Positions 2,819-59,945 of a DNA stretch of 64,000 nt are shown here, piece by piece. The number at the start of each line of letters is the position of its first letter. Position 1 is the first letter of the stretch. A model generated the notes under the pieces. That model did not search any database. It had not been told where the DNA came from and saw only the letters and a program-made list of their open reading frames with translations. This stretch comes from a virus: the IMG/VR virus record IMGVR_UViG_3300049002_000006, positions 1 through 64,000 of that record; one strand, written 5' to 3'. The position numbers and the translations under genes were made by a program.

Positions 2819-3032
2819 TCGGAATAGGAACTATGGAGTAGGACCGGGCGAGGCGTTCGATCTGGTCTTCTTTGTGCCGGCATTCACCCCGGTAATGGAA
2901 GCCAGGACAGGAGCAGAAGACGTAGCCGGTCAGCTTGGACAGCGTTACCGTATGGACTTCACCGGGCTTGCTCTTGCTGTGGTATTTGGCGATGACTTTC
3001 ACGCCGAGCTTCGACGGCCTATCGGTCTGCAT
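2742..3032 (-). CDS. SWIM-type zinc-finger protein
   Basis: SKSKPGEVHTV...CSCPGFHYRGECRH (CxC..CxH). Confidence 0.7.
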   Translation of the reverse strand: MQTDRPSKLGVKVIAKYHSKSKPGEVHTVTLSKLTGYVFCSCPGFHYRGECRHKEDQIERLARSYSIVPIPSDGREQKKPQPAKSHPLTKKRVGRP

Positions 3033-3042
3033 AGCGCCCTCG

Positions 3043-3092
3043 CGTCTAGAATCGCGTTTAACGGCCGATCTATTGCCGGCTGTAGAAAATCA
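3043..3092. promoter_or_regulatory. conserved 50-bp intergenic element, copy 1
   Basis: 37/50 identical without gaps to 52591-52640; both precede leftward genes. Confidence 0.7.
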
Positions 3093-3181
3093 CGCCCCGG
3101 GCAAGATCGGCCCGCAAACGCCGTTTAATCGTGACTGGCGGGGCATTGTTCTCAGCCCCGCTAATTCAGGCCAGCTTTGTG

Positions 3182-3448
3182 CTACGCCCCGTGCTTCGGG
3201 ATAGGTAACCAGCCCTCTTTTTCGGTTTGGAGTTCGTGTCGCCGCTTGTTGCTCAGGTAGGCCGGTTTGCGAATACCGATGCACTTGTAGTGGACAGAAT
3301 CGTTTGTCGGCTGGTCGTAGATCACGCCGAAGGCCAGTTTGCAGGCTTCGCGAGGACCGGACGCCTTTTCACTGCGGAGGGCGATGATCTTGTCAGTCGG
3401 GACGTTGTTCTCGTCTCGGTCCAGGATTCGGATGTAGTAGTACGGCAC
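3182..3448 (-). CDS. hypothetical protein
   Basis: ORF in cluster. Confidence 0.6.
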   Translation of the reverse strand: MPYYYIRILDRDENNVPTDKIIALRSEKASGPREACKLAFGVIYDQPTNDSVHYKCIGIRKPAYLSNKRRHELQTEKEGWLPIPKHGA

Positions 3449-3703: not shown

Positions 3704-4065
3704 ATTTCTAGGTCTCGGATTCGTTCGTCATGTTCGGCCCGGTCGAGTCGCGGCGTCTCTTCGAGGTCTCGTTCTTGGATGTCTTCCGGAGTATGGTCGG
3801 CGTAGTAGGCTTCGAGATCTTCGTCTGACATGCAGTCGAGGGTCTCTTTGTTCCGGATCGCCTCGTTGGCCCGGTCGTAGCTATTCGTGCCGTCATCGGT
3901 CGGACTGACATGGAGCCGGTCGATCAGCGCCTCGATAGCGGAAGCCTCGGGGTAGCCTTCGGCCGAGTGTAGATCGAAGACTTTGTGGAGTGCTTGAAGT
4001 ACGCTCTGTCGGTCTTCGTCAGTCAGAGTCGTGAGGAATAAATCGATTAATCGTTCGGCGGTCAT
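3691..4065 (-). CDS. acidic hypothetical early protein
   Basis: ATG 4065 with SD AAAGGGG, downstream of promoter. Confidence 0.65.
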   Translation of the reverse strand: MTAERLIDLFLTTLTDEDRQSVLQALHKVFDLHSAEGYPEASAIEALIDRLHVSPTDDGTNSYDRANEAIRNKETLDCMSDEDLEAYYADHTPEDIQERDLEETPRLDRAEHDERIRDLEMWGK

Positions 4066-4153
4066 CGTCAGGCCCCTTTCGAGTCTAGATCGGCCCCACG
4101 CCTCGCCAGAGAACAGCCCGGCAAGAGGCGTGAGAATTCGCCGATATCGAGAT

Positions 4154-4182
4154 ACTGTACTGTCGGCGGGCCGGCCTCGCAA
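4154..4182 (-). promoter_or_regulatory. early promoter TTGCGA-17-TACAGT
   Basis: Near-consensus hexamers, correct spacing. Confidence 0.55.
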
Positions 4183-4283
4183 CGTTATTCGCGCCTTTTT
4201 GTCGATGTTTTTTGGCCGCTTCCAGGAGCCCGTCCACTGATAATTACTGTTTCACTCGTTAGTATGATATGGCTTATACCTAC

Positions 4284-4311: not shown

Positions 4312-4340
4312 ATGCCCCCGCCCACTAAAAGGAGGAGGCA

Positions 4341-5138
4341 GTGTCGAAGACGAGAACCATAAAAGTCGCAGTCGTGTGGCAGGACGAGTTCTACCTGCGG
4401 GCCTATCAGTTAGCCCGCAGTGGGATGGGGAAAATGCAAATCGCCCGGGCGATCGGAGTCAGCTGGCCGACGTTCAAGAAGTGGCTGGACAGGAAGGAAG
4501 CTCTCAGGACCGCTATCAAGGACGGATCAGATCCCATCCACGAGGGCAAGCCGCAGCCCTTCCAAGACTACGTTTACGGCAACATGGACCCACACACGAA
4601 AGCAGTGTACGATAAGGTCCGGTCGTACATCGACCCGCAGACGGCTCCTAGGAATGCGGTAGTGATGCTGGAAGAGTTGATGCGGGACCAGGGCGACAAG
4701 ATGCGAAAGTCCTTATTTCTGCACTTCTACGCCAGTCACGGATTCAATCCGTCTGCCGCCTGCCACGCGGTTAATATCAAGAAGAAGACCCTAGAAAGGT
4801 GGTGCATCACCGATCAGGAGTTTTACGAGATGATGGAGGAGATGCGGTGGCATATGAAGAACTTCTGCCGGGGCCGGGCGATGGACTTGGTGGCCGCCGG
4901 GGACGCAAGTATGACCAAGTTCATGCTGAGTAATCTGGATGAGGACTTCAGGAAGACGCCGAGTACGACCAACATCAACATTCAAGGCCGGATCGAACAC
5001 GAGCATAACCTGGTGGATGTGGATAAGATTCCACTCAAGATCAGGATGCAGATGATGGACGCAATCGAGAACGAGCGAGACGGGGACGAAGACGAGATTC
5101 TGGACGCCGAATACGAGGTAAAGGCAGATGGAAATTAG
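4341..5138 (+). CDS. terS: terminase small subunit (HTH)
   Basis: N-terminal HTH (QIARAIGVSWPTFKKW), second HTH, GDASMTKFML, position before terL. Confidence 0.7.
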   Translation: MSKTRTIKVAVVWQDEFYLRAYQLARSGMGKMQIARAIGVSWPTFKKWLDRKEALRTAIKDGSDPIHEGKPQPFQDYVYGNMDPHTKAVYDKVRSYIDPQTAPRNAVVMLEELMRDQGDKMRKSLFLHFYASHGFNPSAACHAVNIKKKTLERWCITDQEFYEMMEEMRWHMKNFCRGRAMDLVAAGDASMTKFMLSNLDEDFRKTPSTTNINIQGRIEHEHNLVDVDKIPLKIRMQMMDAIENERDGDEDEILDAEYEVKADGN

Positions 5139-5168: not shown

Positions 5169-5459
5169 ATGAGTTTGGTGCGAATCGAAGCTGAATGGTT
5201 TAGAAAGGCGTTAGAGAAATCACAAGAACGGATGAAGGTACTTATAGCTCAGGAACTAAAGAAAGCAGGACTTAAGCTGATGGCTGAAGCAAAGGTGACG
5301 TACAACGAGGCTCAGCTACCTGGATCAGACTGGGTGGAGTTAGAAGGACAGTTGCCGATGACAGACGAAGGTAGAAAAATCTTGGAGGAGTGGTTAGACG
5401 AAACGTTGTCGAGCAGGAAGCAAGCCGACGAGCCGGTCATCGTGAAGGAGAAGGAATGA
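5169..5459 (+). CDS. hypothetical protein
   Basis: ORF between terS and terL, ATGA coupled. Confidence 0.55.
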   Translation: MSLVRIEAEWFRKALEKSQERMKVLIAQELKKAGLKLMAEAKVTYNEAQLPGSDWVELEGQLPMTDEGRKILEEWLDETLSSRKQADEPVIVKEKE

Positions 5460-6976
5460 ATAAGAAGATGGCCGTGGACCGGATTAAACTGATCCGTAGC
5501 ACCACGATGGAGAGCTACTCCCAATTCGTCAAATACTTCTGGCCGTGCGTCTCGGAGGAGAAACTGTGCTGGAACTGGCACATGGAGTATATGTGCAACG
5601 AGACGCAGAGAATCTACGAACGGGTGTTCAAAGGCTTGCCTAAGGAGTACGACGAGGTCACCAATATCAGTCCTGGGACTAGTAAGAGCACCGTAAAGAG
5701 TGTCATGCCCTGCGCGTGGGCATGGACTAGGATGCCCCACTTCAAGATGATCGGGGCATCCTACGCGGAAGAAGTAGCCATCGACCTGAGTATGAAGTGC
5801 CGAGGACTGGTCACACACGACCGCTTCCGAGAAATCTTTCCGGAAATCGTCTTACGAGACGATATGAACAGTAAAGGAAAGTTCGGTAATACGAAAGGTG
5901 GGTGGCGGCTGGCCGCAGGCGTCAAAGGCCGGATTATGGGTCATCATGCTCATGTGATAGTTGTGGACGACCCGCTTAGTCCAGAACAAGGTGAGTCTGA
6001 GTTAGACACGGCTACGGCCAATAGATGGATTAGTAAAACTCTTTCGACCAGAAAGATCGACAAGGCTGTCACACCAATGATCCTTGTGATGCAGAGGATT
6101 CACCATAACGACCCGACTGCTCTATTCCTCAAAAAGAAACGAGTCCGTCATACCTGCATCCCGGCCGAGATAATGGATGGCAAGATTATGGTTCATCCGG
6201 ACCACCTGCGAAAGCACTACGTAGATGGATTGATGGACCCGGTCCGGCTGAGTCGAGAAGTTTTGGATGATTACAAGGCCGAAGGAGACCGCTTCTATAG
6301 CACCCAATTCTTGCAAATGCCGGCCCCCGACGGCGGCGAGATGTTCAAGGTCGATCGGCTCATCAAGCTGACCGAGTACCCGAAGAAGTTCGACAAGCTC
6401 GTCAGGTTCTGGGACAAGGCCGGGACTAAAGGCGGCGGGGCGTACACGGTCGGAACACTCATGGGCATGGTCGAGGACAAACAAACCAGGAGTGCCCGAT
6501 ATTTTGTCCTCGACGTGGTCCGGCGGCAAGTCGATAGTTATTTCCGGGAGAAGTTGATTGAGGACACGGCCCACAGCGACGGCAGGAGTGTAATCGTCGG
6601 CGTCGAGCAGGAGCCGGGCTCAGGCGGGCTGGAGTCGGCACAGAATACGGTCGGCAGACTAGGTCCGCAACGGTTTGTGGTCAAAGTGAGTAAAGTGGAT
6701 GTGTCAACAGGCGGGAAGATCCAACGAGCCGACCCGTTCAGTTCTCAGGTAAACGGTGGGACAGTATACTACCTGCCCGATAAACCCTGGAACGATGCGT
6801 GGCTGGAAGAACTAGAGCATTTTCCGCACAGTCGTACCAAGGACCAGGTAGATAGTGCGTCCGGGGCTTTCGCCCTGTTGGCCAAGAAGAGGCGGCAGGT
6901 CGGCGGTGTCAGGATGAACAGGTCAAGGGTGTCGAGTTTCGCGGCCCGGGTAGTGCCTCAGTACGCCCCCGCGTAA
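5456..6976 (+). CDS. terL: terminase large subunit
   Basis: WNWH, Walker A-like SPGTSKS, Walker B VIVVDDP, MQR, nuclease RFWDKA...EQEPGSGG...DQVD. Confidence 0.95.
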   Translation: MNKKMAVDRIKLIRSTTMESYSQFVKYFWPCVSEEKLCWNWHMEYMCNETQRIYERVFKGLPKEYDEVTNISPGTSKSTVKSVMPCAWAWTRMPHFKMIGASYAEEVAIDLSMKCRGLVTHDRFREIFPEIVLRDDMNSKGKFGNTKGGWRLAAGVKGRIMGHHAHVIVVDDPLSPEQGESELDTATANRWISKTLSTRKIDKAVTPMILVMQRIHHNDPTALFLKKKRVRHTCIPAEIMDGKIMVHPDHLRKHYVDGLMDPVRLSREVLDDYKAEGDRFYSTQFLQMPAPDGGEMFKVDRLIKLTEYPKKFDKLVRFWDKAGTKGGGAYTVGTLMGMVEDKQTRSARYFVLDVVRRQVDSYFREKLIEDTAHSDGRSVIVGVEQEPGSGGLESAQNTVGRLGPQRFVVKVSKVDVSTGGKIQRADPFSSQVNGGTVYYLPDKPWNDAWLEELEHFPHSRTKDQVDSASGAFALLAKKRRQVGGVRMNRSRVSSFAARVVPQYAPA

Positions 6977-6990
6977 TTCGCCTTTTTCTC

Positions 6991-7019
6991 TTGCATGCCC
7001 CATATCATGCCGATAAGCT
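6991..7019 (+). promoter_or_regulatory. early promoter TTGCAT-17-TAAGCT
   Basis: Spacing and position before 7093 gene, in GGW-free window. Confidence 0.55.
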
Positions 7020-7092
7020 ATCTCTATGTCGTTGTCGGCCGACTGCCTCATCACTTCGGGGCGGGCCGACAACGAAAAAGAAGGGGCCGAAC

Positions 7093-7299
7093 ATGCAAGC
7101 GCAAGCGCCGAAGTGTCAGAAGTGCGGGGCGAATCTGATATATGTGACCGACTTCGCGGCCCCAGGCTGTGGTCAAGCCTGGCGGTGCTCCGATCAGTCG
7201 TGTGCCCGGCCGCACGTCAAGATCGGCTCGACTGTCATCGACCTGTCCGAGCATGAAGATCCGACCGAATACGAGTACGACATGGCCGACGTGATGTGA
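7093..7299 (+). CDS. small zinc-ribbon protein with own promoter and terminator
   Basis: CQKC...CSDQSC; SD AAGGGG. Confidence 0.65.
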   Translation: MQAQAPKCQKCGANLIYVTDFAAPGCGQAWRCSDQSCARPHVKIGSTVIDLSEHEDPTEYEYDMADVM

Positions 7300-8258: not shown

Positions 8259-8615
8259 ATGAAAAAGAACTTCGGATGCCTGGACTGCAAAAGCGACAGA
8301 TTCGCAATGGTCATACTGAAGGAAGAGGTTTGGCTATCAATAGCTGACAAGCACGATTTCCTTTGTCCTGTTTGTATAGAAGTCCGTCTTAAAAGGAAGC
8401 TTACCTGGAATGACTTAAAAGGGTGTGTAGTTAACCTGGACGCTTTAATGGGGATTCACTACTTAATCACTTCCAGTCCACAAGAAATCCTTACTATGTT
8501 CCAGGAATATCAAGCTCTGATGAGTTTGGAAGCCCCTCTCCTCTCGCAAAAGTCAGAAGGATTAAAGGAAAAGCCTCGAAACGCCTCGAAACGCAAAGAA
8601 ATCAACAAAAAGTGA
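8259..8615 (+). CDS. zinc-finger phage protein
   Basis: CLDC...EVWLSI...LCPVCIEVRLKRKLTWND. Confidence 0.7.
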   Translation: MKKNFGCLDCKSDRFAMVILKEEVWLSIADKHDFLCPVCIEVRLKRKLTWNDLKGCVVNLDALMGIHYLITSSPQEILTMFQEYQALMSLEAPLLSQKSEGLKEKPRNASKRKEINKK

Positions 8616-9514
8616 AAAGGAGGAGGTTTCGCCGAATTAGTAGAATAGAACACTAAATATGTTCTCCAGATGTATACTCAATATTAACAATTAGTGGTAT
8701 AACATATCAAAAACGCCGTACCCAAGTCCAACCACTAATTATTTACAGGTAACGGTAGCACAATTCCAGAGACAGGCTACCTCATTACCAATTAATTCAG
8801 CCGGCTCACTCACTTCTGGCCCAAAACAAGTCTTCAAATCCCCTGGACAATCGTTATTAACCGCCCTTTTCCTGCGATATCTCCTGGCCAGAGCACAATC
8901 TCACGCCCTAGGCATAATAACTCAGGAAACCATCGGTTAATGCATTTCCTTTCAAATACCCCTCAGGTTCAATCAAGGACGCACACTTTCCTGCTAACAG
9001 AAGGTCAATAGGACTAATGGTTGAGTGGATGTGTTACCAATAGACCAATCACACACTCCTTCCAGGTAGCTCCTGTGATATGACTGGAAGAGATTCTTAG
9101 GTCGGGCTAGAGAGTCCAGCTACCAGTCTGCGTTCACGGTTAACAGGATATACGGTTTAGGAATTCGAGGCCGATAGGTAGCATTTGGAAGAGGTTAAGG
9201 TGCCAACGGACCAGGAGGGTTCAGCGCTGGTCGAGGTAATAAGGACTTACGGTCGAGCACTTCTTGGAGGTATTTCCATAGGTCTAACCAGGTGGGTTCA
9301 ACCGAGGTTAGACCTATTCGGACTACAGGTAGTATAGGTTTAAGTAGATTAGGACTAGCGGTTTTACCGGTGGTTAAGGGTTCAACAGACCCGGAGGGTT
9401 CATTTGGTCAACAGGTAATAGGTTAACGGTCGCGGTTGATCGGACTAAAGGACTAGCGGTTTCGATAGGTTTGGAGGTTGGTCAAGGGGTTTAAGTGGTT
9501 CAGGAGGAGGTGGA
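8616..9514. other. non-coding region with polar GGW-dense tracts
   Basis: No credible ORF. WCC-rich at about 8700-9060, about 52 GGW on + at 9061-9514, repeated AGGACTA/GGTT words. Confidence 0.75.
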
Positions 9515-9566
9515 AGCAGAAAAGCGCAAAAAAGAGAAGGGCGAGAAATCGCCGTGAGTGTGAACG

Positions 9567-9597
9567 AAAAGAGCCCCGGGCGAAGTGCCCGGGGCTC
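9567..9597 (-). terminator. intrinsic terminator of island gene
   Basis: GAGCCCCGGGC ACTTC GCCCGGGGCTC TTTT on minus strand. Confidence 0.9.
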
Positions 9598-9611
9598 ACG
9601 ATATCGAGATG

Positions 9612-10142
9612 CTACGCCGTCGCCACTTCGGGCACTTTCTTGCCCTTCGCCTTGCCCTTCGGGGCTTCGGCGGCCGGCTTCGTTTCGCTCTCGGCCGCGA
9701 TTAGTTGAGAGACGATTTGCACAATCGGCCCCGCCAGTGAGTAGCCGATGGCCGTTTTGCTCACGCGGCCGTTTCGCGTCATCGTGCCGTTGTGCGGGCC
9801 AGTCGGGCGATTCGGGCCGTACTCGACACTGCCGATGCTTGCGGCCATGTCACGATCACGCACGCCAGTCAGCTTGTCGGCCGCTTCGCCGTTCGCCAGC
9901 TGAGCGCACAAAGCGCTCAGCCACACTTTGAACATGGCGTGTGTGCCAGTGCCCGCCCGCGTGCCGTAGCTGGCGAGTAGCGTGCCCTGATCGCATAGGG
10001 CGTCGTACACGCGGCGGGCCGGCGTGTTCTCGGCGGGCAGGGCGATCATAGTGCCCGGCTGACTGCTACGCCCCGGCCGCACGGGCAGGGCCGCGAGGGC
10101 AGTAGCCAGCATCTCATTCGTCGTCGTGTTCAGCTTCGTCAT
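9612..10142 (-). CDS. isolated immediate-early-like protein (176 aa) in GGW-free island
   Basis: ATG 10142, SD ACAGGGG, own promoter and terminator; Lys/Ala-rich tail. Confidence 0.8.
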   Translation of the reverse strand: MTKLNTTTNEMLATALAALPVRPGRSSQPGTMIALPAENTPARRVYDALCDQGTLLASYGTRAGTGTHAMFKVWLSALCAQLANGEAADKLTGVRDRDMAASIGSVEYGPNRPTGPHNGTMTRNGRVSKTAIGYSLAGPIVQIVSQLIAAESETKPAAEAPKGKAKGKKVPEVATA

Positions 10143-10256
10143 GTCATAGCCCCTGTCTTGTAAGTACGTCATTGTCTGCATTGTGTCGCTCGCCCGCACA
10201 CGCACGTTGCGCGGCAGACGCGAGCCGAGATGTCAGAGAGCGTACTAGACAGAGTG

Positions 10257-10285
10257 ATTAAAGGGGCCGACTAGTCTGTTGTCAA
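10257..10285 (-). promoter_or_regulatory. strong promoter TTGACA-17-TTTAAT
   Basis: Consensus -35, 5/6 -10, 17-nt spacer. Confidence 0.85.
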
Positions 10286-10307
10286 CGATATCGAGTGATT
10301 TTATCAT
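10279..10307 (+). promoter_or_regulatory. overlapping divergent promoter TTGTCA-17-TATCAT
   Basis: Both hexamers 5/6; overlaps the -35 of the leftward promoter. Confidence 0.5.
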
Positions 10308-10485
10308 CACTATTTCGAGCAATTGTTCACTAGCAGTGGTAGCGAATGTCGTGCCATACCCTCATGGTTCAATAGGACTAACGTGATTACTGCCGACAGG
10401 GGGTAATAGAGGAGGATTGGAGGACTCCCCTACTTCGTGGATGAATCTGGAGGAGGGGCATTGGCAGTGAATGGGCAACCCATCC

Positions 10486-10591
10486 CTATCGATTTTTTTA
10501 TTTTTTACCCGGTATCGATTTCTAAATTTTCGCCCGGTATTTTTTAACTACGGTTTTTATCTCCTGGTATCGATTTTTTATTTTTTTAGGT
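10486..10591. repeat. T-tract repeats (GGTATCGATTTTTTA)
   Basis: TATCGATTT at about 10488, 10513 and 10568, plus CCCGGTAT x2. Confidence 0.8.
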
Positions 10592-10606
10592 AATTTTAGA
10601 AATACC

Positions 10607-10635
10607 TTGCCGTCCAGAAAACTATCGAGTATGCT
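10607..10635 (+). promoter_or_regulatory. late-operon promoter TTGCCG-17-TATGCT with 9-bp inverted repeat over -10
   Basis: Spacing; CGAGTATGC..GCATACTCG. Confidence 0.55.
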
Positions 10636-10697
10636 ACCCGCATACTCGCAGGAAACTCATCAGACCAAATTACCTGAATTCGCCCTAGGAGAACACC

Positions 10698-11102
10698 ATG
10701 AGTGGTAAGCTGCCTGACCTGGCAAACCCCTACAAAACGCGGGCGTTCGACTACGTCGGCACGACCATCGGGGCGGAAGCCACGAACGTTATCACCGTGG
10801 CCTGCCAGCTGCAAACGAGCGACCGGCGGGACATCGCCGAGCGGGCCATGATCGAATGGTTCATCAGTGACGACGCGGCCGGCGACAGCCTGGTAGCCAC
10901 AGCCCCGGACGGCGGCGTGGCCGCCGGGGCGGACGGTTGGCTCAGCCAACTCGTTACCGGAAAACTCGGGGTCGCCGTGTGCGAGGCCGACGGGGATTTG
11001 GACATCGCCATCACCCACGCGGCCGGGGCGAAGACCGTTTACCTGGGGTTCCGGATGCCGGACGGGACTATCCGGATGTCGGCCGCTATCACCTTCGCCT
11101 AA
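10698..11102 (+). CDS. putative virion structural protein
   Basis: A/G/T/D-rich beta composition, SD AGGAG. Confidence 0.6.
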   Translation: MSGKLPDLANPYKTRAFDYVGTTIGAEATNVITVACQLQTSDRRDIAERAMIEWFISDDAAGDSLVATAPDGGVAAGADGWLSQLVTGKLGVAVCEADGDLDIAITHAAGAKTVYLGFRMPDGTIRMSAAITFA

Positions 11103-21424: not shown

Positions 21425-21539
21425 ATATATTAAGGAATACTAAAATGGTTTCGTTCGACAGGTCTTGGTGGAAGGGACCGGCCCCGTGGTGGGGCGGGCT
21501 ACTGGTCGTCGCCGTAACCCTACTGTTCTGGATTTTCTC

Positions 21540-23126
21540 ATGAAGGGTATGCCAAAGGTCACTTTCGACCAGGCCGAGCGGATCCTCGATCAGAAAATCG
21601 AAGAACTCCTTCGTCACGGCAACGTCCGGAACGAATCCAGTCTGCACGGTCGGCCGTCCCGGTCCGATCTTGCTGCCACGTCTGTGGACGAAGATCCGGA
21701 AAGGGACTTGTACACGGAGTGCGGGTATCCGAGGACGATCACCGCCTTCAAGTATAAAGCCCTGATCGAACGGGAAGGACACGCCCGCCGGGCGAACGAA
21801 ATCTACCCGGACGAAACGTGGGCCGAGGAGCCCGAGATTTTCGAGTCGGACGATGAGACGGTCGAGACTCCACTGGAAAAGTCGTGGTTGGAGTACGCCG
21901 CGAAGACCAGGGCTTTGAGGTACATGTACCTCGGAGACATCGCGTCGGGCATCGGCCGGATCGGCGGACTTTTATTCGGCTTTAACGACCTATCTGGAAG
22001 CCGGAAGCCGGAAAAACCAGTTCTAGGTTTGAAGGACGACGGGACGCGAGCCCCCGGCCGCCCGCCCGAAGACCGTCAACACCTGTTCACGCGGGTGTTT
22101 GACGAGACGCTCATCCAGATCGTTGACGTTGACAACAGTTACGGGCCACGACACGGCCAGCCGACGATGTACCGGCTGACGCTCACGACACCTGACGGCA
22201 TCATCAACTCCGCGACCGAGGGCACGCAACGACCGATCAGCAAGAAGGCGGCAACGGACGAGACGCTACTAGTTCATTGGACTAGGTTCTTGCCCCTGGC
22301 CGACGGGAAGACGACACACCCGATTTTCGGCACGCCCCGACTCGAAAGCAACTATAACCGGTTGCTCGATCTTCGGAAGCTGTATTCGGCCTCGCCCGAG
22401 ATGTTCTACAACGGAGCGTTTCCTGGGTATTCTCTCGAAGCCCTGCCGGACGTGACCAGTGACGACGACATCGACGTGGAGGCGACTCAACTCCAGCTGA
22501 GTCGGTACCGGAAGAAACTGCAACGGTTTGTCATGCTCGTTGGCATGACCATGAAGCCGCTGACACCACAAATTGCCGACCCGTCTAAGCACGTCGAAGT
22601 CTTGTTGGCGGCCGTCGCTATGGCGATGGGTATTCCGCTACGAATCTTCCTGGGCTCGGAGTCAGGGCATCTGGCGTCCACACAAGACGTAGCCACATGG
22701 AACAAGCGACTGGCAAAGCGGCAGCATACCTACGTCACCCCCGAGATTATCATTCCGTACATCGAACGGATGCAACTCGTCGGGTGTCTGCCGCAGTCGA
22801 AGCAGGTCAAGGTGGCGTGGGCCGACTTAAACAGTTCGTCGGACGAGACGCAGGCGGACGTGGCGTTGAAGACCACGCAAGCCTTGTTGCAGTACGCCAA
22901 GTCCGGGGCCGAGGAATTCTTCCCGTTGCCGTTCTTCCTGGCTCACGTCCTGAAGTATAACAGGAAGTTGGTGTCGGCTATTGTCAAGGAGGCTCAGAAG
23001 CGAGGTCGGTTGAAGCTGACGAGGAAGGTTTGGGAACAAGAAAAGGCCGCTCCGATCGGCGGGACAGGGAAGAAGCAGACCGGAGCTAAGACTGGTCGCA
23101 AGAGGAATGCGACCAGTAGTAAGTGA
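21540..23126 (+). CDS. portal protein (DUF1073-like)
   Basis: YTECGYP, GQPTMY, VHWTR, FGTPRLE, GIPLRIFLGSESGHLASTQD; size. Confidence 0.85.
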   Translation: MKGMPKVTFDQAERILDQKIEELLRHGNVRNESSLHGRPSRSDLAATSVDEDPERDLYTECGYPRTITAFKYKALIEREGHARRANEIYPDETWAEEPEIFESDDETVETPLEKSWLEYAAKTRALRYMYLGDIASGIGRIGGLLFGFNDLSGSRKPEKPVLGLKDDGTRAPGRPPEDRQHLFTRVFDETLIQIVDVDNSYGPRHGQPTMYRLTLTTPDGIINSATEGTQRPISKKAATDETLLVHWTRFLPLADGKTTHPIFGTPRLESNYNRLLDLRKLYSASPEMFYNGAFPGYSLEALPDVTSDDDIDVEATQLQLSRYRKKLQRFVMLVGMTMKPLTPQIADPSKHVEVLLAAVAMAMGIPLRIFLGSESGHLASTQDVATWNKRLAKRQHTYVTPEIIIPYIERMQLVGCLPQSKQVKVAWADLNSSSDETQADVALKTTQALLQYAKSGAEEFFPLPFFLAHVLKYNRKLVSAIVKEAQKRGRLKLTRKVWEQEKAAPIGGTGKKQTGAKTGRKRNATSSK

Positions 23127-54521: not shown

Positions 54522-54705
54522 TGTCTTTACCGGTTTCTAGTGCGAGTTCCAATAGAGGGATGATACTTTCTTTTCCGCACGTCTCGACAATGTGAACTCC
54601 TTCTAGTCCGAATACTAGAGCGATGACAACGTGTTCTTCGATCGCTTCTTTGTCCAGGTCTTTAATCAAAGCTGACAGGGCTTTTGTGTATTCCTGATTT
54701 TTCAC
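54451..54705 (-). CDS. hypothetical protein
   Basis: GTGA coupled to pol. Confidence 0.5.
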   Translation of the reverse strand: MKNQEYTKALSALIKDLDKEAIEEHVVIALVFGLEGVHIVETCGKESIIPLLELALETGKDNERKTFTTDNQVAGRDEKEGNSN

Positions 54706-56111
54706 GCCGCGATCTCCATGGGGGCCTTCTCGTGCCACGACCTGCCCCGGGGGGCCACGTCCGCCTCGATTTCTAACGGGACGATAATCCAGCTGAAATG
54801 TTTACGGACTTCTTCGACCATTACTTTGTGACAGATCGCCAGCAGCTTCTTAACTTCGTCCTTGTGACAGTCGAACAGAATGGAATCGTGAATCTCTCCG
54901 ACCATCAAGCACCGTTTCAGCCCGGCCTTCTCTAACTCTTCCAGAATTCTGGGCATCGACCACAGGGCTAGATGGAAGGCCGACCCCTGGACCGGGATGT
55001 TGATGACTTGGTTGCGACGCATCGGGCTGTCACAACGAAACCCTGTCAGCAGGTCGAAGTAGCCACGTTCCAGATATTTATTATACCATTCCTTCTTCCA
55101 TTTCGAGTAGACGGCGAAGCGTTCGTTCCAGAACTTCTTCTCCACTTGCTTGATATGGTATTCAAACGTGCCGGGCCGCGGGTCGCAATCTTCGAGGCAC
55201 GCCCCCATAGATTTGATTCCGTTGCGAGCCAGGTGCTTTTCTAGAGGCACACCGCTATTGGTCGTGAGTTTGAGCTGGTCGATGGCGTGCCAAAGTGCTT
55301 TGGCACAGTCCACATAATAGCTTCCGTAGAACTGTGGGAAGACGTACTTGTTTTTTGCGCAATATCTGGAATCTTTGCTAACTTCTTCCTTACTAAGCAG
55401 GTAGCACTCCATCGCCATGTCTCGGTGCATATCCGTCGTCTTGTCTTTGATGTATTTCAACAGGACCGGGTCCTTGTTGTAGCACGCCGAGACCTTGACC
55501 TCGATTCCGCCGTAATCGACTTCAACGATACAGTGATCCGGATGGCGTGGCTTGTAGCATCGCCGAACCATCTCGGCCAGTTTCTTATTTCTTACCGGCT
55601 GGTTCTGGAAGTTAGGCCGGCTACATCCGGACCTGTGGCTGAGAGACAAATTGAGACTGTAGCCCGGATGCACGAACCCGTCGATCATTTCCCGCTTCAA
55701 GCCGTCGAGGTAAGTGGACTTGATCTTTAGGAGCTTTCGCAGGTCCTGGTATTTTTTCAGGAAAGGTAAGTCCGACGAGTCGAGTCTCGACAAGACCTCT
55801 TCTGTCATCTTCGGCTGGCCCGTCTTCGTCAACTCTCTCTGGTCGATCTTAAATCCGAGGACGCCGTACAGGAGCTTACCGAATTGGGGCAGGCTGTTCA
55901 GGTTGGCCTTCTGCCCGAAGCGCTTCTTCCATTCTAACCAGACAGGACTTCCTTTCAGAATGGCTTGCCTGATTTCAATCTTGTGGGCCATGCCCTTGAT
56001 CGCTGATTCCAGGTAGTCCACGTCTACGGCGACTCCATTAAACTCTATCTCGGCGAGAGCCCGTTGCCCACGATACAGGAGCTTGATCGCTTCTTTAGTA
56101 TTCGGTTTCAC
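54702..56111 (-). CDS. family A DNA polymerase, polymerase domain only
   Basis: PNFQNQP, motif A DYGGIE, motif B R..AK..F..FYG, QG, motif C IHDS. Confidence 0.9.
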   Translation of the reverse strand: MKPNTKEAIKLLYRGQRALAEIEFNGVAVDVDYLESAIKGMAHKIEIRQAILKGSPVWLEWKKRFGQKANLNSLPQFGKLLYGVLGFKIDQRELTKTGQPKMTEEVLSRLDSSDLPFLKKYQDLRKLLKIKSTYLDGLKREMIDGFVHPGYSLNLSLSHRSGCSRPNFQNQPVRNKKLAEMVRRCYKPRHPDHCIVEVDYGGIEVKVSACYNKDPVLLKYIKDKTTDMHRDMAMECYLLSKEEVSKDSRYCAKNKYVFPQFYGSYYVDCAKALWHAIDQLKLTTNSGVPLEKHLARNGIKSMGACLEDCDPRPGTFEYHIKQVEKKFWNERFAVYSKWKKEWYNKYLERGYFDLLTGFRCDSPMRRNQVINIPVQGSAFHLALWSMPRILEELEKAGLKRCLMVGEIHDSILFDCHKDEVKKLLAICHKVMVEEVRKHFSWIIVPLEIEADVAPRGRSWHEKAPMEIAA

Positions 56112-58380: not shown

Positions 58381-58728
58381 TCAGGCCCCAGGAGGCAGTT
58401 CCGTACCAGGAGTCGGAACGTCTTGTTGATCGCCGGCCTTCGCCAAAGGAACAGTTGTCTCTGCCCCTAGCGTGGCAGGAACTTCCGTCGGGACCGGAGG
58501 CGTCACGCTCGCCCTGGCCTGGTCCATCATTGCCGAGAACTTCGCCTCTAGCCGGTTGAAGCATAGCCCGATGTCCTTCACCTTACCCTCGGCCCGGTTG
58601 CTATACAAGCTTTGGGCGATGCCGACGAACTCCTGGCCTGTCCGATAGTTGCCGAACAGCTTTCGCAGGGTATCTACTTCCTTCTGCACGACTTCCAACG
58701 ATTCGATACTGACGGTTGCGTTAATCAT
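58381..58728 (-). CDS. hypothetical protein
   Basis: ATGA coupled. Confidence 0.55.
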   Translation of the reverse strand: MINATVSIESLEVVQKEVDTLRKLFGNYRTGQEFVGIAQSLYSNRAEGKVKDIGLCFNRLEAKFSAMMDQARASVTPPVPTEVPATLGAETTVPLAKAGDQQDVPTPGTELPPGA

Positions 58729-59945
58729 CCGATCTCCTTGAGTTGTTCCTTAGCGACGTGCCACGTCAATAAGGAATCTAGGGCGTTATAACGGAGGACC
58801 GTACTCAGGTCGCATTCCGTTATTCGGTTGAGCCCCGGCCCGGATTCGTCTTTCGGTACCAGGTACGGGGCTACTGTATCGTTGTATTGTGGTTGCCCTA
58901 GTTTCACGAACGCCTGGAATTTCAGGCCACTAACCCCGCGTCTATGGTCTAGGGCGTGGGCGACTAGCATTCCGTCATGTCTCCAGTTGTTGACGAACTT
59001 GCCCCATTGAAACCTGGTCCATAAATCTTCGTGTTTCGTGTTCCAACCGATCTTCGGGCGAGGCCCTAAAACGATTTCCTTCGCGGCTTCGATCACGGGG
59101 CCGACGAAAGGGCAAGCGACAGACGAAAGGCCGTCGGAAACGCTTATAGAGAAGATGCGGCTATGGACGTGCGGCACTAAAGAGCAAGTCTCATAGTCGA
59201 AGGATAAAGACCGTTTATTCGCGTGCATCTTTCGTAGTAATGCCGCCCCTTCGGTCGGGGCTATTTCGACCACGCATCTAGCGTCCAAGTCATCGACTGG
59301 TTCTTTATGTGGCCGTCCGTTTAACTCGAAAGCCGCTTTCAGGTGCTTGTCGAATAGAATACCTTCTATCGGTTTGTTCTCGTCTTCGTTCCGGTTGACA
59401 TGACTCGGATGAAACGTCGGGCAGACCCAAGTGTTCGGCTTCCGGCAAGGAATCTTCCAGCCGGCCCACTTCGTGATGCCCCCGACGTCCTTATCGAACA
59501 GCCAACCGATTACCGACTCGACGGCCCTGGCCCCGAGGACGATAATTGTTGACGGCTTTAACTCCTTGATCGTATTGGTCACGTTCGGACGACACCATTC
59601 GATCATTTCGTCCTTGGTGATCTTATTCCGTGGCGGCCTGCACCAAAGACTGTTGATGGTCCAGCAATCCCGCTCCAGGTCGATTTTTAGCTTCCTGAGA
59701 GTCTTATGGAGTCTGGCCCCGGCCGGGGCTCCTGGAAAGAACGGCCGCCCGTGCAAGTCTTCCTGTTCTCCGGGGGCCTCGCCGACGATCAGGACACCCC
59801 GCTTGCCCTTACCGAAGACCTTCATCTTCGGCGTCCGACACCCGCTCTTGTCGAGCCGGCACATGGAGCACTTCGGGCTGATCGGGTCCGGCGGCCGAAA
59901 CATCTCTAAGGCGGTCCGCGAGAACAGAGGACTTTCTAACATCAC
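58725..59945 (-). CDS. family-4 uracil-DNA glycosylase fused to PolA 3'-5' exonuclease domain
   Basis: CxxC, GEAPG..ED, CRPP.N, HPS; ExoI FDYET, ExoII WNTKHED, ExoIII YNALD. Confidence 0.85.
   Translation of the reverse strand: MMLESPLFSRTALEMFRPPDPISPKCSMCRLDKSGCRTPKMKVFGKGKRGVLIVGEAPGEQEDLHGRPFFPGAPAGARLHKTLRKLKIDLERDCWTINSLWCRPPRNKITKDEMIEWCRPNVTNTIKELKPSTIIVLGARAVESVIGWLFDKDVGGITKWAGWKIPCRKPNTWVCPTFHPSHVNRNEDENKPIEGILFDKHLKAAFELNGRPHKEPVDDLDARCVVEIAPTEGAALLRKMHANKRSLSFDYETCSLVPHVHSRIFSISVSDGLSSVACPFVGPVIEAAKEIVLGPRPKIGWNTKHEDLWTRFQWGKFVNNWRHDGMLVAHALDHRRGVSGLKFQAFVKLGQPQYNDTVAPYLVPKDESGPGLNRITECDLSTVLRYNALDSLLTWHVAKEQLKEIG

Follow-up and report, generated by a model that had tools for sequence, protein, structure and literature searches.

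A strand-polar, GGW-dense non-coding tract between convergent phage genes and its possible function as a two-way transcription stop

The genome of a tailed phage recorded as IMGVR_UViG_3300049002_000006 in IMG/VR carries, at positions 9061 to 9514, a non-coding tract in which isolated GG doublets followed by A or T (the word GGW, W standing for A or T) are packed on one strand more densely than anywhere else in the genome. The window, which is the whole stretch of DNA analysed here, comprises the first 64 kb (64,000 nucleotides) of a contig of 82,146 bases. The two ends of this contig share an exact overlap of 127 bases (1-127 = 82020-82146), so the assembly is circular and coordinate 1 is arbitrary. 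The tract is a real, statistically extreme and strand-polar non-coding feature. It belongs to an untranslated gap of about 1 kb (8616-9611) separating a rightward packaging operon, the last gene of which ends with a stop codon at 8615, from the only leftward gene of its block, hereafter the island gene, whose stop codon lies at 9612. With stops at 8615 on the + strand and 9612 on the - strand, the tract sits between convergent transcription units. We tentatively propose, with somewhat less than even confidence, that 8616-9611 works mainly as a two-way transcription stop or insulation buffer of Rho-type composition.

The feature on which the analysis is centred is the following.

9061 to 9514, + strand: GGW-dense non-coding tract, made of isolated GG doublets followed by A or T

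The first-pass annotation, made from the letters alone, had reported 52 GGW against only two GGC on the + strand of these 454 bp. Our recount returned the same numbers, together with 11 WCC, and showed that this is the densest window of that length in the genome, where such windows contain 17.7 +/- 5.6 GGW on average and, outside the locus, no more than 33. Mononucleotide shuffles of the tract gave 25.0 +/- 3.3 GGW (largest value 37 among 2000) and dinucleotide shuffles 31.0 +/- 3.0 (largest 41 among 2000), both far below the observed count, so composition is not the explanation. The base following GG is T in 35 cases, A in 17, G in 7 and C in 2, whereas W makes up 48% of the bases in this position genome-wide (binomial p 3e-9). 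The enrichment is carried by GGT (35 occurrences, 4.2-fold), AGG (3.7-fold), GGTT (7.8-fold) and AGGT (7.0-fold), while GGA, with 17 occurrences, is merely 1.7-fold enriched. The potential for two-tetrad G-quadruplexes covers 240 of the 454 nt and is matched by a coding window near 36.9 kb (247).

The non-coding character of this DNA, also claimed at first pass, held up to closer inspection. Every one of the six frames of 8616-9611 is interrupted by between 13 and 24 stops, no open run exceeds 81 codons, and no credible hidden frame appears if a single type of stop codon is read through. Within the tract, ATG occurs once for 5.4 expected at the genome rate, next to 16 TAG and 11 TAA. Simple tandem duplication, named beforehand as a possible source of the enrichment, is ruled out since Tandem Repeats Finder (TRF) detected no array in the tract and the density survives the masking of repeated words. 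Those words, noticed early on, do recur: AGGACTAGCGGTT(T) is found at 9351 and 9449, GGAGGGTTCA at 9214 and 9393, and GGTGGGTTCA at 9291. The repeated words of the tract, namely the 20-nt module described below and GGnGGGTTCA, account for 18 of the 52 GGW, and once they are masked 34 remain in 324 bp, or 105 per kb. The near helical spacing initially suggested for the GGW did not withstand autocorrelation. The modal spacing is 8 bp (14 of 55), the best Fourier power reaches 4.0 at period 8, and no periodicity emerges, lag 10 being observed 5 times for 4.8 expected and lag 11 twice for 5.8 expected.

The composition of the gap was assessed by a genome-wide scan for C>G bubbles, with the 78-nt window used for Rho terminators. 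Two bubbles abut between the convergent genes.

8626 to 9030, + strand: C>G bubble for rightward RNA and candidate Rho-loading region, starting 11 nt past the stop codon at 8615
9049 to 9638, - strand: C>G bubble for leftward RNA, which extends from the island gene stop (9612) through the tract

The rightward bubble (area 4601, with a C-G excess of 12-17 per 78 nt) is the third largest of the genome for + RNA; the two that exceed it are located among the leftward genes of 43-82 kb, to which + RNA would be antisense. The leftward bubble (area 8391) ranks second for - RNA and has the highest peak, 36%, its C-G excess of 28 per 78 nt at 9412-9574 being the genome maximum. For a minimal length of at least 78 nt, both are uninterrupted, over 328 consecutive 78-nt windows for + RNA and 513 for - RNA. 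The YC dimers characteristic of rut sites, spaced by 9-13 nt with at least four in a row, are present as well: runs of the form (YC-N9-13)x6 start 21 times on the - RNA of 9061-9570 and once on the + RNA of 8616-9060. With a minimum free energy of -93.8 kcal/mol, the leftward RNA of the tract is less structured than all of the 80 genome strands of equal length that were sampled (-151.2 +/- 20.1 kcal/mol, the weakest at -95.9), and the + RNA of the left bubble, at -83.4 kcal/mol for 384 nt, likewise has a weak fold in absolute value. No intrinsic terminator was found on the + strand in 8400-10800.

According to the consulted part of the work of Nadiras et al. (PMC6144790), C>G skew, spaced YC dimers and weak structure are the main predictors of Rho-dependent termination, Rho-dependent termination occurred in vitro on all tested templates whose C>G bubble exceeded 78 bp, and a non-template strand with G-rich motifs counts against such termination. 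It is the combination of these predictors with the convergent position, the bubbles at both stop codons and the weak fold of the leftward RNA that leads to the reading of the gap as a two-way termination buffer. Each incoming transcript, no longer translated, would meet a long, C-rich, G-poor and weakly folded stretch of its own RNA, corresponding to 8626-9030 for the rightward RNA and to 9638-9049, GGW tract included, for the leftward RNA. The position, the composition, the lack of coding capacity and the word bias are directly observed, and on such RNA we infer that the host termination factor Rho loads. For the leftward island gene, the Rho region would back up a strong intrinsic terminator, and the junction of the two Rho-loading regions would produce the polarity switch near 9030-9060. 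Over this skew, the G residues of the tract are written almost solely as GG then A or T, a word banned from the island and from early promoters.

Several propositions of the first-pass annotation can be reconsidered in this light. Among other roles, it saw in the locus a transcription insulator acting through modified bases; the position and the composition do fit an insulator, but the evidence points to an RNA-level mechanism of Rho type and does not establish base modification as the agent. The polarity switch that it placed near 9060 is present, but its proposed meaning as a terminus or origin gives way to a simpler one, that of C>G bubbles extending from both stop codons and abutting at 9030/9049. 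The opposite bias described for 8700-9060 is valid as an excess of C on the + strand (105 C, 56 G) and not as an excess of WCC, since 13.7% of windows match or beat its 17 occurrences.

A number of observations weigh against the termination buffer. As stated in the consulted part of PMC6144790, C>G bubbles are frequent, and many of them do not act as terminators. The RNA of the left bubble folds better than its own shuffles (z -3.1). A Rho back-up of 500 nt looks redundant because the island gene already has a strong intrinsic terminator, and neither the repeated modules nor the perfect 12-bp hairpin described below has a role in a termination model. Finally, the skew does not explain why W comes after GG. 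The left bubble shows no word preference, the base before CC being W in 15 cases and S (G or C) in 15. Inside the one leftward bubble, GG is followed by 52 W and 9 S up to the border at 9512/9515 and by 0 W and 9 S beyond it (Fisher p 7.5e-7). The absence of a word rule in the left bubble and this flip inside one bubble indicate that the word bias is a separate layer, mirroring the ban on the same word in the adjoining island.

The island and its right border comprise the following features.

9515 to 10337: island without GGW and WCC
9612 to 10142, - strand: island gene, 176 aa, from an orphan family of three members
9571 to 9597, - strand: intrinsic terminator of the island gene, an 11-bp stem followed by TTTTCGTT
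10279 to 10307, + strand: sigma-70-like rightward promoter, TTGTCA-17-TATCAT
10285 to 10257, - strand: leftward promoter TTGACA-17-TTTAAT, back to back with the rightward one and read by eye from the sequence
10338 to 10480, + strand: right flank, mildly GGW-enriched, with one module copy and GGAGGA-type words

Between 9512 and 10338 (826 bp), not a single GGA, GGT, TCC or ACC is present. The island forms a self-contained unit of promoter, gene and terminator. Its protein has two homologues only, P0003 (67% identity) and P0004 (38%). It has no match in Pfam or PHROG, an atlas search gave no usable match, and its AlphaFold model, mostly helical and of low confidence (pLDDT 59.5), retrieved nothing from the PDB with Foldseek at E<=0.001. 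The right flank had been described as again GGW-rich. A mild enrichment is indeed present (11 GGW, in the top 2.3% of windows), which does not make it exceptional. Beyond this flank and ahead of the late operon, which starts at 10698, the T-rich segment 10480-10600 contains three TATCGATTT(T) / CCCGGTATCGATTT units (repeat families D2 and D6).

Other zones of this genome lack GGW. Gaps on both strands are located near promoters at 768-983, 3024-3199, 4060-4221 and 6949-7147. Gaps on one strand correspond to the message strand of leftward genes at 213-983, 3852-4221 and 70299-70741, and in the other early genes the message strand alone is purged of GGW, the template strand keeping a normal density. 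Three leftward early genes, starting at about 795, 4065 and 10142 on the minus strand, have in common the start region AGGGGC-(2-3 nt)-TGAC-(A/G)-ATG, the ribosome site of which is of GGGG type and avoids GGW. The word GATATCGAG occurs five times in the genome, both strands counted, and three of these sites (4143, 9600 and 10287) fall in GGW-free zones near promoters or the terminator.

A patterned word of this kind calls to mind the guanine modification of phages encoding DpdA. A DpdA-like gene at 61749-62690 matches PHROG 887 (E 2.7e-39), and its protein has tblastn matches in 190 phage records, including CAjan (33% identity over 60% of its length). Homologues of FolE (E 2.8e-65) and QueD (E 6.2e-33) were also detected; the scan, which covered 10 genes, detected neither QueE nor QueC. 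The phage thus encodes both DpdA (TGT-like) and preQ0-pathway genes, the combination by which membership of the 7-deazaguanine group was assessed. As DpdA is present and GGW is patterned, the simplest link is that GGW is the candidate modification word. The GGW rule is probably tied to guanine modification by the phage, and GGW itself may be the 7-deazaguanine target, although it is not a published DpdA motif. In the parts of these reports consulted, the motifs are GA and GGC for CAjan (PMC7544227, PMC10484667) and GA for iggy, with 97% of sites modified (PMC10484667).

If GGW were the DpdA target, no other DNA of the genome would be as heavily modified as the + strand of the tract, which would bear about one 7-deazaguanine derivative per 9 nt. 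The density itself could then be the function, and the boundary between hyper-modified and unmodified DNA could itself be recognised, whether as an insulator, as a roadblock or as a switch. Such an element might act as a strand-specific barrier stopping the spread of transcription, of a DNA-binding protein or of a nuclease from the unmodified island, or as a switch differing between packaged, modified DNA and freshly replicated, unmodified DNA. We consider it unlikely as the main function of the locus, but several observations speak in its favour. GGW is banned in the island and maximal beside it, and the border between the two, at 9512/9515, is very sharp and falls within an uninterrupted region of skew; the enrichment outlasts the masking of repeated words; other GGW-free zones mark early promoters of the same phage; DpdA, FolE and QueD homologues are encoded; and phage DpdA enzymes are, in the consulted part of PMC10484667, motif-specific and near-saturating. 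The qualification of the tract as maximally modified, introduced at first pass, would draw on these three homologues and on the mirror-image ban of GGW in the island. Against a modification-based element, GGW as a target is deduced from avoidance alone, the right flank (10338-10480) is weakly enriched, and the templates of early genes keep a normal GGW density, so that a modified G in the template seemingly does not block transcription. Moreover, the genome of CAjan, counted with its known GA/GGC motif, has no motif-free island, its largest gap on both strands being 79 bp, and lacks any motif-dense non-coding tract, with its highest z (2.8-3.1) reached in coding DNA. This indicates that the architecture is not general.

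The repeats of the locus raise another question, that of a protein-binding array. Degenerate modules of 20 bp, together with one inverted repeat, are distributed as follows.

9003 to 9022, + strand: module copy 1, of GGTnAnnAGGACTAnnGGTT type with three GG steps 8 bp apart, reference copy of family D1
9138 to 9157, + strand: module copy 2 (D1), 70% identity to the reference copy
9235 to 9254, + strand: module copy 3 (D1), 70% identity to the reference copy
9344 to 9363, + strand: module copy 4 (D1), 70% identity to the reference copy
9434 to 9461, + strand: overlapping module copies 5 and 6 (D1, starts 9434/9442), 70% and 75% identity
10367 to 10386, + strand: further module copy in the right flank
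9278 to 9317: perfect 12-bp inverted repeat (I7), with a 16-nt loop carrying GGTGGGTTCA

Six to seven modules thus flank the island gene, and they could form an iteron-like array to which a phage protein would bind, perhaps the island protein with its lysine tail, for replication, packaging or autoregulation. The array would be comparable to the iterons of plasmid rep genes or to the arms of packaging sites, and the GGW density would simply follow from the binding motif. On the left side, the modules follow each other with a start-to-start spacing of about 90-135 bp, and the GG steps are the best-kept columns of their alignment. Three GGW at 8-bp steps occur 10 times in the genome, both strands counted, of which 6 are inside the locus, as are 3 of the 4 occurrences of GGnGGGTTCA. 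The T-rich repeat region at 10480-10600 and the direct repeat bracketing tract and island would be in keeping with such an array. Dam (GATC) sites are clustered in P1 pac and E. coli oriC, and iterons lie on both sides of P1 repA. We nevertheless hold this explanation to be rather unlikely. The module copies are only 70-75% identical, and 34 of the 52 GGW lie outside the repeated words. No DnaA box was found in 8600-10700, the whole window containing 7 matches for 8.3 expected, and the replication genes are located at 44-79 kb. The island protein has no recognisable DNA-binding fold (Pfam, PHROG, the model at pLDDT 59.5 and Foldseek at E<=0.001). As for packaging, the gene of the terminase small subunit is 4 kb away, and pac sites usually lie in that gene.

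An iteron-type origin is accordingly not supported and an origin based on DnaA boxes was rejected, with repeats 70-75% alike, no DnaA box in the locus, no initiator recognised by Pfam and PHROG and distant replisome genes. More generally, nothing was found in the assembled contigs in favour of the terminus or origin suggested at first pass: the assembly is circular, DnaA boxes are absent from the locus and the phage's own replisome genes (44-79 kb) are 35-70 kb away from the tract.

The direct repeat mentioned above is of about 28 nt and opposes 8956-9022 to 10356-10386, on either side of tract and island, in the form ATACCC(C)TCA-GGTTCAAT ... AGGACTAA (families D11 and D1). Its left copy holds an insert of 36 nt. 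This repeat could represent an old insertion or duplication boundary of the island cassette. Words of the GGAGGAGG type that have no usable start codon behind them are present at 8619 and 9503, the ends of the non-coding gap, and at 10449 in the right flank; further copies are found at 4331 (+), just ahead of the gene of the small terminase subunit (terS), and at 71112 on the minus strand.

Alternatively, the tract would be expressed from the + strand as a G-rich non-coding RNA. This could be an array whose units, each of about 100 nt, serve as guide-like RNAs or as sponges, or an RNA derived from the 3' untranslated region of the packaging operon. With several copies of such units to one side of a small gene and a single copy to the other, the arrangement is reminiscent of VIPR arrays, which have one vrRNA upstream and three downstream in the portion of 10.64898/2026.04.26.720920 consulted. 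Start codons are scarce and stops enriched in the tract, Shine-Dalgarno-like words (AGGT, GAGG, GGAGG) are numerous, and one hairpin is very stable: that of 9278-9317 reaches -22.2 kcal/mol against -9.6 +/- 2.6 for its shuffles, none of 300 being as stable. Yet the two other GGnGGGTTCA sites (9207-9232 and 9386-9409) fold no better than shuffles, so that one of the three candidate hairpins is significant, and the three loop-conserved hairpins were discarded as a signal of structured RNA. The fold of the + strand RNA is not better than that of shuffles (z -1.8), and no + promoter was found just upstream.

The known families of such RNAs could be set aside individually. The pentanucleotide repeats defining a VIPR array (at least 4 YNNGG or NNNGG units) are absent from both strands of 8600-10700, only 1 of 55 GG spacings equals 5, and no RAMP-like protein was recognised beside the tract by Pfam and PHROG scans or in the low-confidence model of the island protein. 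A sponge of the CsrB/RsmZ type is not supported either, the CsrA word GGA being enriched 1.7-fold (17 copies) versus 4.2-fold for GGT (35 copies). No Rfam family passed the threshold, the one sub-threshold match falling on the terminator hairpin of the island gene, and a search for a tRNA or tmRNA at the locus led to the rejection of both. A function as + strand RNA therefore appears quite improbable to us.

It may also be envisaged that the tract itself serves no function. In this case an older non-coding region, rich in GGW, would have been split by the insertion of the GC-rich island cassette, leaving both flanks as leftovers. The tract has a GC content of 0.49 and the island one of 0.61, a sharp step; the direct repeat (D11, D1) brackets the two, and the island is a self-contained unit of promoter, gene and terminator. 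This scenario, which we regard as very unlikely, merely moves the question, for the GGW richness of the older region is left unexplained. The enrichment is far beyond that of shuffles, and neutral DNA should drift toward average density.

The remainder of the genome provides the context of the locus. Pfam and PHROG scans identified the following packaging and structural genes.

4341 to 5138: small terminase gene (terS)
5390 to 6976: large terminase gene
21465 to 23126: portal gene

A single DNA polymerase profile (phrog_17) is matched by two open reading frames, 54702-56111 and 58725-59945, which cover different parts of the profile and are about 2.6 kb apart, so that the gene is split or interrupted. 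The early minus-strand gene 1-795, which spans the contig junction, has a sub-threshold match to the NusG NGN domain (E 0.0019, 19.1 bits for a cut-off of 22.2).

Relatives of the locus were sought extensively. Megablast and blastn searches against 50,697 phage records gave nothing useful, the sole match being 80 nt of the low-complexity tail of the island gene in Xylella phage Bacata. Scans seeded with the island protein and its alignment found no relative in IMG/VR, JGI metagenomes or GTDB genomes, and neither did IMG/VR scans with the neighbouring genes and the early NusG-like gene. A scan with the large terminase (TerL) yielded four loci at 26-30% identity, too distant to be used, and cultured matches at 35% at best. 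The two-module DNA pattern had no match in GTDB genomes and one in IMG/VR (L008), rejected as a chance match since it is a coding, repetitive stretch of Gly/Val type in an unrelated low-GC phage. Among sequencing runs, this DNA was located in one alone, a soil metagenome from which it probably derives, and no RNA run containing it is listed. Three sequencing runs compared at 80% likeness, the source run as assembled contigs, returned an 82,002-base contig and scattered chance pieces of 35-50 nt, without variants, joints or read ends.

Taken as a whole, this genome uses GGW in three grades: absent in early promoters and one early gene, ordinary in most genes, and packed on one strand of one buffer, the change from packed to absent occurring within three bases. 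Phages with 7-deazaguanine replace guanine at short words, a replacement that is not known to have any role beyond protecting the DNA from nucleases of the host. If GGW is a modification site, the DNA chemistry of the phage would provide positional information and constitute a new layer of gene control. Should the modification-dense element exist, it would be the first case of a cis-regulatory element whose defining property is the density of a hypermodified base. If the gap is only a Rho-type buffer, the result is more ordinary, namely a clean and unusually strong two-way terminator between convergent phage genes.

Comparison with known systems helps to situate these possibilities. Dam-cluster elements such as E. 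coli oriC and P1 pac are cis elements whose activity depends on modification, and their palindromic GATC marks both strands. The phage tract resembles them by the several-fold enrichment, in a candidate cis element, of what may be the target word of a modifying enzyme; it differs in that GGW is asymmetric and enriched on one strand only, and no origin or pac features were found at the locus. VIPR arrays, as presented in the consulted parts of 10.64898/2026.04.26.720920 and 10.64898/2026.04.26.720927, are likewise intergenic, one-strand, non-coding phage arrays rich in G doublets, beside a small gene and with units of about 100 nt, but they contain a pentanucleotide repeat that the tract does not have, and no RAMP protein was recognised here. 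The DpdA systems of CAjan and iggy have in common with this phage a DpdA homologue, here with FolE and QueD, and a short G-containing word patterned along the genome; motif-free or motif-dense tracts are not described for them in the consulted parts of PMC7544227 and PMC10484667. Finally, the rut regions described by Nadiras et al. (2018, PMC6144790, in the part consulted) are similar in being untranslated, with a long C>G skew, spaced YC dimers and weak structure directly after stop codons. In the phage, two such regions would abut head to head, one of them behind a strong intrinsic terminator, and the complementary strand of the tract obeys a strict rule of GG then A or T that rut sites do not require.

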